Source of the DNA: Macrostomum lignano
Taxonomy: Eukaryota
DNA: 64,000 bases
NCBI GenBank assembly: GCA_002269645.1
Contig: NIVC01001935.1
Span: 156,805-220,804 of the forward strand
Reading direction: 5' to 3'
Part shown: in pieces, positions 3,474 to 6,400 of the stretch
Numbering within the stretch: the first letter of the stretch is position 1
Layout of the letters: each line of letters opens with the position of its first letter
Notes under the pieces: generated by a model
Seen by the model: only the letters and a program-made list of their open reading frames with translations
What the model was told of the DNA's origin: nothing
The model's database searches: none
Position numbers and translations under genes: made by a program

Positions 3474-6400
3474 ATGAAATCCAAGCTATCCCATTACCCA
3501 AATTCCCTCAGCCTAGCAACTGGCATGACAGGTTCTTCACCAGACTTGCTTGGTCGTCGCATTGAACTAGATGGTCATTTTGGCATTGTGAAATACATTG
3601 GGCCAGTGGGTAGCAGTCGAGACACTTGGCTAGGCATAGACTGGGATGAACCTGAGCGCGGCCGGCACAATGGCACGCACAATGGAGTACAGTACTTTAA
3701 GGTAGGTGTTGCATAAGATTGTTACATGGCTGCTCTCAGTCATGGTTAAATGTGCACTGCATAGGGCCAATAGGTTAATGTTAAAAAGTATATACAGCTG
3801 AAATGGTTTCTGAGAAGCTTTCATACTAGTAACTAATATCATTCGTAGGAAGAATGATAAAAGGCACAACCTAAAAGTAGACCCAGAAGTATGATAAAAG
3901 ACAGCTAGGAAGGAAACCGTCAAACATAAAACCGTCAAGCATGAAACTGTCAAACATGAAACCGTCAAACATGAAACCGTCAAACATGAAACCGTCAAAC
4001 ATTAAACTCTCACAAGTAACACTGGCACTGAATCCCTTCATCCTGCCGAGAACGGCCGTCGCTCTGGTGCCTCGTCTCTCTGTCGCTACTGTCACCGGTT
4101 GCTCTGGTCGCGCTGCACTGGTCATCGAGTCCTGCCGTTGCTGCGCAGCCGTGTCGCTCCGTTAGGACCCGTCAACGCCGGTCCACCTCCGCTCCGCTGT
4201 CCCTGGGTCTGCACTGCAAAGTCCCTAGGAAGACACAGCCTCAGCCAGCGCACGAATCCCACAGCCTACGGAGGGCACCCAGGACCAAACCCTGGCGTCG
4301 CAGGTCGAACAGCGGAAACACCACCATCACCGACATGTAGACCGCTTGGCGACTCCACCGACGAACTCCGTGCCCCGGATACTTGCGGCCGTCGCGCTCG
4401 ACAAACCCAAAAACTTGCAGGAACAACTCCGGGGCGAATTCTCTGAAGTCCACCCGGTTGACAGCACACAGAGGTTTCAGGGCAAAAACTACACAGAAGA
4501 GGGCCCCACGATCACCGCTCCGCACTGCTTGGTGTAAGCGCTTTTTTATCAGCCCGATTCCAGGAATTTCGGCGACTCGAACCGGTGGACGCGGGGTTAC
4601 CTGTAGCTGGCTTATTTTCCGTAGGAATTCTGCGATGAGTTCGGCGCATCCTCCGCACGCTTCCTCTCTTACCCAGCTACTGTCGAGAACGTCGAACCCG
4701 GCCCACTGCAGACGAAACTCTCTTCCCTCCTCAGTTTCGCGCACTGCCAACACATTCAAAACTTCAAACTCCTCCTGGCCACGCTCCGCTACGTTTTCCT
4801 CGTCCGTCACTGCGTAACCAATTTCACTATTCTCCGTCTCGGTTTCGCCCGCTGACTCCCATTGCCGCTGGAACGTTTCTTCGGCCAACCTGTCTCCTTC
4901 TGTCGAGAAAATAATAAGAGTAAACACACTACGTTTAAATTAGGTGTTAAATTGAATAAGGAGCCAGCAAGTCGGCACAAGGCCCAAACCGATATATTTA
5001 TATGACATTAACTTTAGGGGTGCAAGATAAGACAAGGGGGTGGGGTGCGCGACTGAGGAAAAAGGCGAGAACGGAGAGCCAATCAGAACGCAGCAAGGGA
5101 GAGAGAGATAAGAATAACAAGATTGAGCTAGACAGAGAGAGAGAGAAAACAGAGACAAGTGAAGGTGAACTAAGAAATGACTAGGAAAGTCGCGACACTC
5201 CTCCCAAAAAATAGAACATTTTTTTGAATTCTCGAGTACTAACAGAAATTATGAATGAGAGTTCAAAACCCAATAATTTTTTGCAGTAAATTAACAAATT
5301 GTGTACAAATATGACTATGACTATCGACTATGACTATGAATTTCACTACAAAACCTATAGAGTAAATGCAAAATTGACCAAAAAATTTAACATGTGCGAT
5401 TTTAAATAACGAATTATTATAACCAAATTAAAAACTGACTGTATCCTCCCCCCAAAAATTAATTTAATTTTCTTTACATTAAGACTCTGAGGAAAAAAAA
5501 CAAGGACAACAAGTTAGGTTAATTAGTTAAGATGTCCAGGCTTGCGCATCACTTCGTCCCGTAGATCATCCGGCATCTCGTCGTCGTCCAGCATCTCCTC
5601 CGCAATTTCCAGTAGCCTATCGGGCTCCAAAATCATGCCTCCGAACCAATCATATAGCTTTCGGCGGAACGGGCAGGATAGCAGCCGGTACGCTTCCTCG
5701 CACTCCTGGAACTGCTGCTTGAGGATGCTCTGTCGCCTCTCTTGTCGGGATGGGACTCCCGAGCTCGACGGTAGAATGCTTTCCGGATTTCTGAGGCCGT
5801 CGCTTCTTTGGCAACACCCAATCGCTCATACAGATTCGACATCTTAAAACCGTTTAAAACTTCTGCTACTAGTATTAAATGGGTTTATCCGCTCTCTTCG
5901 CCGATATCTCTATACTACGCGTCGTACGCTTGCCCGGATCAGAAGTAAACCGGCTGTCCGAACCGGTCCGGGGGTCTCCGTCGTCGTCGCGGTCGGATAC
6001 CCTCAGGCGGAGGCTCGGGTTCGATCTCCACTTCCTGGTGTGGTTCAATCACTTCAGGCTCCGGTGGCTCCAGCTCAGCCATCCTTTCCTCGTTCTCCAC
6101 CAGTAATCCCTCGTCGCGAATCAGATGAATTCCTTGTCGGACGCCTTCCTCAAGCTCTGGCAGTCTAGCGCAGAAGATATCGTCCTCGTCGTCGTCGTCC
6201 TCAGCATTCTCATCCTGTCGCAGTATCGGCTCAGCAATGCGGAAAAAATCTGCGATAAATTGTCGGTAATACCCGCACAGTCCCAGGAATGACCTTACTT
6301 CCTTGGCATTCTTCGTAGTTGGCCAGTCACGAATTTCGGCAATCTCTTCTGAACTCGTGGAGATTCCATCAGCTGACACTATGTGTCCCAGGAAGGTCAC

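Follow-up and report, generated by a model that had tools for sequence, protein, structure and literature searches.

How a single Gypsy element comes to show both a J domain and a chromodomain behind its pol gene is the question raised by a locus of Macrostomum lignano, which we analyzed within a window of 64,000 nucleotides from the 764-Mb assembly. A preliminary description of this window had proposed a Gypsy retrotransposon on the minus strand with two accessory genes, a J-domain co-chaperone and a chromodomain protein, and promoter motifs between them. The element itself was confirmed by Pfam matches to gag, protease, and reverse transcriptase (RT) on that strand, and so was the existence of a Gypsy lineage with J-domain and chromodomain cargo inside the element, present in many insertions and under selection. 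The two genes with an internal promoter, however, had to be given up, as intact relatives carry one fused open reading frame, here called ORF3, and the apparent promoter is a nested foreign LTR.

The window copy, representing a family that we call W, is a dead, internally deleted element. It begins on the minus strand with a 5' LTR (9007..9757) whose ends could be read as TG...CA and which is about 82% identical to the 834-bp LTR found in full-length copies of family A. Directly after the LTR lies a primer-binding site starting with TGG (8986..9003), the same as in family A, followed by gag in three broken frames (7871..8902; Pfam Retrotrans_gag and zinc knuckle) and by protease and RT with stops and frameshifts (6218..7733; Asp_protease_2 and RVT_1; 90-94% DNA identity to family A). 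Comparison with a related locus, L132, showed that an acidic integrase tail (5939..6217) is fused to RT through a deletion of about 1.97 kb, with window position 6217 corresponding to L132 position 5369 and position 6218 to 3401; RNase H and integrase are gone. The stop at which pol was said to end is real (5941-5939), but what it terminates is not a whole pol. The 5' part of ORF3 (5540..5842) comprises a J domain with its HPD motif and the start of an acidic linker. Its DnaJ match (PF00226, E 2e-10) does start from the ATG at 5842, but the single J-domain frame proposed for 5842-5523 is in fact split over two frames (Pfam positions 1-37 and 38-63), with a frameshift near 5730, where the window carries two bases more than three sister copies and is alone in having the lesion. 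The 3' part (4241..4900), recognized by Pfam Chromo and with the family A fold model, contains acidic linker, an HP1-type chromodomain (about 4768-4619), and a five-helix C-terminal domain (about 4570-4244), and its product shares 60% of its amino acids with the family A ORF over residues 102-325 of the latter. The chromodomain noted in a frame at 4927-4241 holds as a domain (PF00385, E 8.9e-7, frame 4939-4241) but not as a separate gene, because the first methionine of this 232-residue frame is residue 202. A 3' untranslated part (3913..4240) closes with a minisatellite, the 15-bp unit of which corresponds to 3' sequence of the element itself, and no 3' LTR is present in the window copy, of whose terminal signals the 5' LTR and primer-binding site remain.

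The element sits between a CAP-Gly exon frame on the plus strand (3468..3716; Pfam CAP_GLY) and leucine-rich repeat exons (12966-13415; Pfam LRR) of one host gene, which we take to be TBCE-like from its domain order. Locus C455 has the same flanks and lesions at 96-98% identity and is therefore a duplicate of the window insertion rather than an independent one. Minisatellites adjoin both element ends (3913-4008 and 9758-10229); the 15-bp unit matches the element's 3' sequence and a 33-bp unit has TCATGA in common with the start of the LTR, which suggests that the arrays may have been seeded from the element. Elsewhere in the window, a 400-aa frame at 60419-61618 looks by eye like a DEG/ENaC channel exon.

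The DNA between the two parts of ORF3 is foreign. It consists, on the minus strand, of an AT-rich 3' internal segment that ends in a polypurine tract (5198..5539, tract at 5205-5198) and is 77-85% identical to other loci of the same repeat family, and of a 297-bp LTR with TGTCG...CGACA ends (4901..5197) that occurs as solo copies elsewhere. The polypurine-like tract with TG (5205-5196) and the CCAAT (about 5083-5079) and TATA (5002-4995) motifs are present as described, but they belong to this nested element, the latter two within its LTR, and are not the promoter of the Gypsy element. Bases 5539-4901 are missing from the sister copies C255 and C2034, in which the J frame continues into the linker, and C255 represents the empty site of the nested LTR. 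With the nested LTR as query, 1014 first-look candidates were obtained in the assembly; solo copies in L094 and L095 are 90-92% identical and flanked by 5-bp target duplications, and L099 holds a pair of related LTRs with a primer-binding site. As an aside, this very abundant small LTR family, to be seen also at L099:6057-7865 and L091-L093 (LTR of about 297 bp, 5-bp duplications), has the primer-binding site TGGCGCCCAA, is TRIM-like, and often lies in tandem arrays. Two lesions interrupt ORF3 of the window: the frameshift and the inserted 3' end of this foreign LTR element. Nested insertion thus accounts for the DNA between the J and chromodomain parts, as the preliminary description had allowed, but not for the J domain and chromodomain themselves, which are common to many insertions.

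The intact form was found by a DNA search with the window J region, which gave many identical 74% matches to what we call family A. These elements are about 8.6 kb long, with LTRs of about 835 bp, and encode gag-PR-RT-RH-IN followed by one ORF3, a single frame of 326-328 aa in which a J domain (DnaJ at 3-64, E 4.8e-16), an acidic linker, a chromodomain (Chromo at 151-199, E 9.2e-9), and a helical C-terminal domain follow one another. The first 17 of 137 matches cover ORF3 residues 1-326 without a stop. In a set of 17 family A loci with LTR pairs, the pairs are 99.2-100% identical at every locus, 15 distinct flanks are represented, and target duplications are seen at 13 loci, in 12 cases of 4 bp. 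As the preliminary description would predict, the J, chromodomain, and C-terminal parts recur in this order after integrase, namely in 15 of 16 mapped family A loci, the other being rearranged. One intact relative is NCBI BOX15_Mlig001265g11 of M. lignano. Family A and its relatives have the hallmarks of Ty3/Gypsy elements (gag-PR-RT-RH-IN, TG...CA LTRs, primer-binding site, polypurine tract, and target-site duplication), but not that of a chromovirus integrase, as the 1060-aa pol frame of family A gives no Chromo match and the chromodomain lies in the next ORF.

Further families came to light when three ORF3 proteins and integrase were used as queries, the counts being lower bounds. ORF3 follows integrase in B, B2, C, C2, D, D2, E, F, F2, and G (in D2 as judged by ORF3 sequence only), and the J and C-terminal domains are carried by six deep RT lineages (RT identity 57-65%). 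Families B, C, D, and E (RT 60-65% to A) have J domain, acidic linker, and C-terminal domain without a chromodomain, and their ORF3s are only 25-32% identical to that of A. Families F, F2, and G (RT 56-59% to A) combine J and C-terminal domains with a TatD-like domain, matches to which were found in 10 loci; loci of this branch include L140:7220-8893, L150, L117, L118, L082, and L122-L124. Among the clade families the chromodomain is confined to A and W, the window lineage, as one of two alternative add-on modules; the constant part is the J domain together with the C-terminal domain. Family G has lost the HPD motif while its ORF is still open; four loci were checked, its LTRs are young, and integrase matches are many. 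Two families inside the clade, I and K, have no ORF3, and H retains only a TatD remnant. LTR pairs of I and H are 98.9-100% identical (for I over 353-443 bp), and such young copies without a full ORF3 imply that an element can either do without the gene or obtain its product in trans.

In RT trees, all these families, carriers and non-carriers, fall on one side of a branch with support of 86/84, and of 92/97 in the second tree; in the first tree, W2_L132 bears a J-plus-chromodomain label by kinship, although what comes after its integrase is a LINE-like insertion, with no ORF3 seen, and H is labelled J plus TatD, yet only the TatD remnant is present. Family I stands beside G and K beside C, so the absence of ORF3 there is most simply explained by loss. 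Twenty loci chosen by integrase likeness comprised four carriers (G), one remnant (H), five non-carriers within the clade (I and K), four outgroups without ORF3, and six that were uninformative owing to insertions or an N gap. No ORF3 was seen in the interior of six further Gypsy loci or of natural copies representing three published families. By RT identity the clade is closest to Gmr1/Osvaldo-like Gypsy elements, at 55-56% to Mlig-id38 (Gmr1/Osvaldo) versus 37% to a Mag element (id115) and 42% to CsRN1 (id55), a comparison with references from the same genome only, in which the tree leaves the joining node without resolution. Three further observations were made along the way. At L127:1864-5160 (C506), a deletion joins RNase H in frame to a family E J-protein, annotated as BOX15_Mlig034239g2 (P0125). 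L134 is a family B copy interrupted after integrase by frames that look by eye like Polinton/adintovirus-type capsid and F5/8-type proteins. Not linked to these elements, L125 and L126 (C575 and C3488) represent a multi-copy J-domain protein with a single frame of 1449 aa.

The HPD motif is kept in 14 of the 15 J domains from family representatives and outside homologs, with G as the exception, and is altered in some single decayed copies. PF00226 scores above its cut-off, with HPD, in A, B, C, D, E, F2, P0002, and four outside proteins, and below it in G (E 0.0025, no HPD). The best solved matches of the chromodomain are Swi6 and HP1, and its nearest genomic match outside the elements is an HP1-like exon at 40%. 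With cage positions following the established HP1 structure, the aromatic cage reads Y/W/V in active A, F/W/F in dead W copies, and Y/W/L in P0002; owing to the valine at the third position, methyl-lysine reading by family A may be weak. The module of F and G is a TatD-like, probably inactive nuclease fold: TatD_DNase is matched at E 4.9e-5 but with 23.3 bits against a Pfam cut-off of 27, PDB matches have E values of 0.09-0.8, and, among the metal-binding motifs, the N-terminal HxH and the C-terminal Asp are altered.

The C-terminal domain of family A was modelled as five helices at a pLDDT of 88, and a basic loop is found in this domain in A-D; in the full-length ORF3 model, chromodomain and linker have low confidence. 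No Foldseek match at E 0.001 was obtained for the C-terminal model in PDB and viral libraries, and the best VIA match (Z 7.7, to B12-binding cap-like helical bundles) is within the background for helical domains; the ESM Atlas gave no usable hit. On this modelling, the well-folded domain has no clear structural relative and appears to belong to no known family. Its profile retrieved eight proteins among 1.84 billion representatives (two from M. lignano, four from Logan, and two from JGI). The outside homologs from Logan and JGI are 33-76% identical to their nearest locus in the M. lignano assembly set, and the five full-length ones (P0002, P0127, P0128, P0130, and P0131) all carry DnaJ, P0002 also Chromo. 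A metagenome scan for P0130 found no locus, and family G ORF3 had no homolog among 8000 candidates. The J-domain tree did not resolve a host donor and gave a single origin support of only 39/83.

Several features suggest that ORF3 may be made from a spliced, env-like mRNA. In the window LTR there is a putative splice donor, G|GTAAG (9268..9273, minus strand), and GTAAG is similarly placed in the LTRs of A, W, B, C, D, E, F, F2, H, and I, with GTGAG in G. In most LTRs this donor is 125-230 bases downstream of a TATA-like box. A YAG immediately precedes the ORF3 ATG in A, B, B2, and D and lies 1-17 bases upstream in W, C, E, and G. An ATG is lacking from the ORF3s of F and F2, which begin AG|TG; since A is the last base of their LTR exon before the donor, a start codon would arise on splicing. 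As GTAAG is common by chance in an 800-bp LTR, the support comes from its position and from the phase in the F families only. No LTR-to-ORF3 joint was present in contigs of four sequencing runs, two guessed to be RNA and two of unstated type; with a family A copy divided into 30 bins, these contigs cover 29-30 of them, a coverage that cannot show transcription; one weak contig joint (depth 2, with a 23-letter side) connects the LTR donor to a nearby acceptor. Among family A loci searched for a processed copy, 27 of 29 hold the exact ORF3 start, all with the same unspliced upstream sequence. One public contig follows the LTR of L029 as far as the splice donor, at about position 1301, and continues from there in DNA of other origin; it may represent a chimeric transcript driven by the LTR.

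Selection on ORF3 was estimated by the Nei-Gojobori method with bootstrap on natural open stretches; several comparisons overlap, and many dS values exceed 1. The dN/dS ratio was 0.09-0.34 in 14 of 15 comparisons, with the upper bootstrap bound below 1 in each, and the fifteenth was saturated. The window's own chromodomain and C-terminal domain gave 0.29 each, and the pol controls 0.03-0.34. We are highly confident that ORF3 is a functional accessory gene. Its history appears to differ from that of the rest of the element. Between A and W, synonymous divergence is 1-2 in ORF3 versus 0.21 in RT, and between B and B2 it is 1.05-1.15 versus 0.20 (RT dS is saturated for C-C2 and F-F2); the ORF3s of A and W return to 97% identity over the last 37 codons. 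Silent divergence so much greater in ORF3 than in RT of sister families suggests exchange of the cassette independently of gag-pol, and ORF3 appears to have been swapped between families by recombination.

HPD-bearing J domains stimulate Hsp70, and class C J-proteins deliver Hsp70 to clients bound by their attached domains; the polyomavirus T antigen, for example, turns its J domain on Rb-E2F. ORF3 combines a constant J and C-terminal core of class C design with add-on modules, the HP1-type chromodomain and the TatD-like barrel, that are both of chromatin- or nucleic-acid-binding type, which favors recruitment of Hsp70 to such complexes. Judged by its sequence, ORF3 probably does recruit Hsp70. 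Its J domain would stimulate host Hsp70 in the manner of class C J-proteins, selection of the client would fall to the add-on module together with the basic loop in the helical domain, and the likeliest client would be host silencing machinery on element chromatin or RNA, which Hsp70 would remodel. The best explanation overall may be that ORF3 is a tethered co-chaperone bringing host Hsp70 to a chromatin or nucleic-acid target, likely the silencing machinery, a reading that we put at slightly under an even chance; anti-silencing as the purpose of ORF3 is proposed tentatively, likewise at somewhat less than even odds. Hsp70 and Hsp90 load Argonautes, and heat shock has been reported to induce Ago3 degradation, according to the available text of PMC11125864. 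It should be noted that both add-on modules are missing from the majority of carriers (B, C, D, and E), and that G keeps its ORF under selection without HPD, so stimulation of Hsp70 is not needed in that family. A bolder version, in which ORF3 would be a programmable, T-antigen-like Hsp70 adaptor with swappable modules that dismantles heterochromatin or small-RNA silencing complexes and mimics heat-shock derepression without heat, its cassette recombining between families, is conceivable, and we consider it speculative.

Other readings of ORF3 have to be weighed against that of a tethered co-chaperone. The window and its duplicate C455 do give the appearance of two separate accessory genes, with a promoter that belongs to the chromodomain gene, but this is hardly credible given the single ORF of intact copies, the empty site in C255, the solo copies of the foreign LTR, and the lack of an early methionine. 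Only marginally easier to accept is a neutral passenger derived from a captured host DnaJ fragment: LTR elements do capture host sequence, and ORF3 has been lost in I, K, and H, yet dN/dS is well below 1 across lineages and the frames have stayed open in families whose ORF3s are 25-32% identical to each other. A decoy that sequesters Hsp70 or HP1-binding sites and weakens silencing generally, with no client delivered, would account for degenerate modules such as the J domain of G without HPD and the TatD-like domain without several catalytic motifs; we regard it as improbable, because the well-folded helical domain is conserved in all carriers and suggests a specific partner.

A role in the element's own replication deserves more weight. 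Reverse-transcribing elements need chaperones, as in the case of the hepadnaviral RT, and ORF3 might recruit Hsp70 for the particle cycle, i.e., Gag assembly, RT activation, or uncoating, with the add-on modules serving only to localize it. This would suit a constant core of J and helical domains and the fact that four of six lineages have no chromatin module; that both captured modules are nevertheless of chromatin or nucleic-acid types, and that ORF3 appears to have been exchanged independently of gag-pol, which is unexpected for a strict Gag or Pol partner, makes it somewhat unlikely in our view. ORF3 could also act in trans in integration targeting, its helical domain binding integrase and its chromodomain steering integration to heterochromatin, as a split version of the chromovirus design. 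The chromodomain is indeed HP1-type and the integrase has none of its own, but only A/W and P0002 possess the chromodomain, the cage of A is incomplete, and the retained HPD would be left without explanation, so that we give this proposal a low probability.

Third ORFs of LTR elements are already known (PMC5408684, PMC7264820), and a J-protein ORF3 is new as far as the literature was searched. Like ORF3 of bdelloid rotifer elements, which typically comes from spliced messages, the gene studied here is a family-specific, non-env, modular third ORF between pol and the 3' LTR that is gained and lost; the bdelloid cargo, however, consists of GDSL esterase, DEDDy exonuclease, and membrane proteins, and "DnaJ", "TatD", and "Hsp" are absent from the main text of that article (PMC5408684). 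The plant aORF-3S is likewise a sense ORF between pol and LTR for which splicing was reported and a chaperone role once proposed, but plant aORFs are env-like or of unassigned type, with no DnaJ or chromodomain in the available text (PMC7264820). Known accessory domains include the chromodomain and a DnaQ-like exonuclease, DnaJ not being listed in the portion of PMC6338049 consulted. Among the papers listed by our literature searches, none was seen to describe an LTR element with a J-domain ORF. Chromoviruses are Ty3/Gypsy elements with a chromodomain fused to integrase. The present elements resemble them in having a retroelement-borne chromodomain, but it is part of a separate J-protein ORF, in one lineage only, and probably on a different Gypsy branch. 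With polyomavirus T antigens and class C J-proteins they share the layout of a J domain with HPD at the N terminus and a part for client binding attached to it, a functional analogy only.

Another close published setting is that of the Gmr1/Osvaldo LTR families of the same genome (PMC12801592). The J families are probably among the 40 families of that study whose content is unnamed; its annotation, in the text available, covers PR, RT, RH, INT, and heat-shock elements only, a word search of its main text for "DnaJ", "chromodomain", and "ORF" was negative, and id38, in which ORF3 had no match, is not a J family. Other M. lignano LTR families are reported there to exploit the heat-shock response through heat-shock elements in their promoters. 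The J families differ from those families, as no canonical heat-shock element was found in 12 LTRs scanned, 11 of them from the J clade.

One practical consequence is that the BOX15_Mlig001265 models annotated as host "J domain-containing proteins" are transposon genes. We know of few animal transposon-encoded proteins that counter silencing or recruit chaperones, and here a J-protein gene is under selection across a whole clade of young, multi-copy elements in a tractable model for which RNAi and transgenesis exist. Because HPD, the chromodomain, the TatD-like domain, or the gene as a whole is present in some natural variants and absent from others, the link of Hsp70 with transposon silencing can be tested directly.
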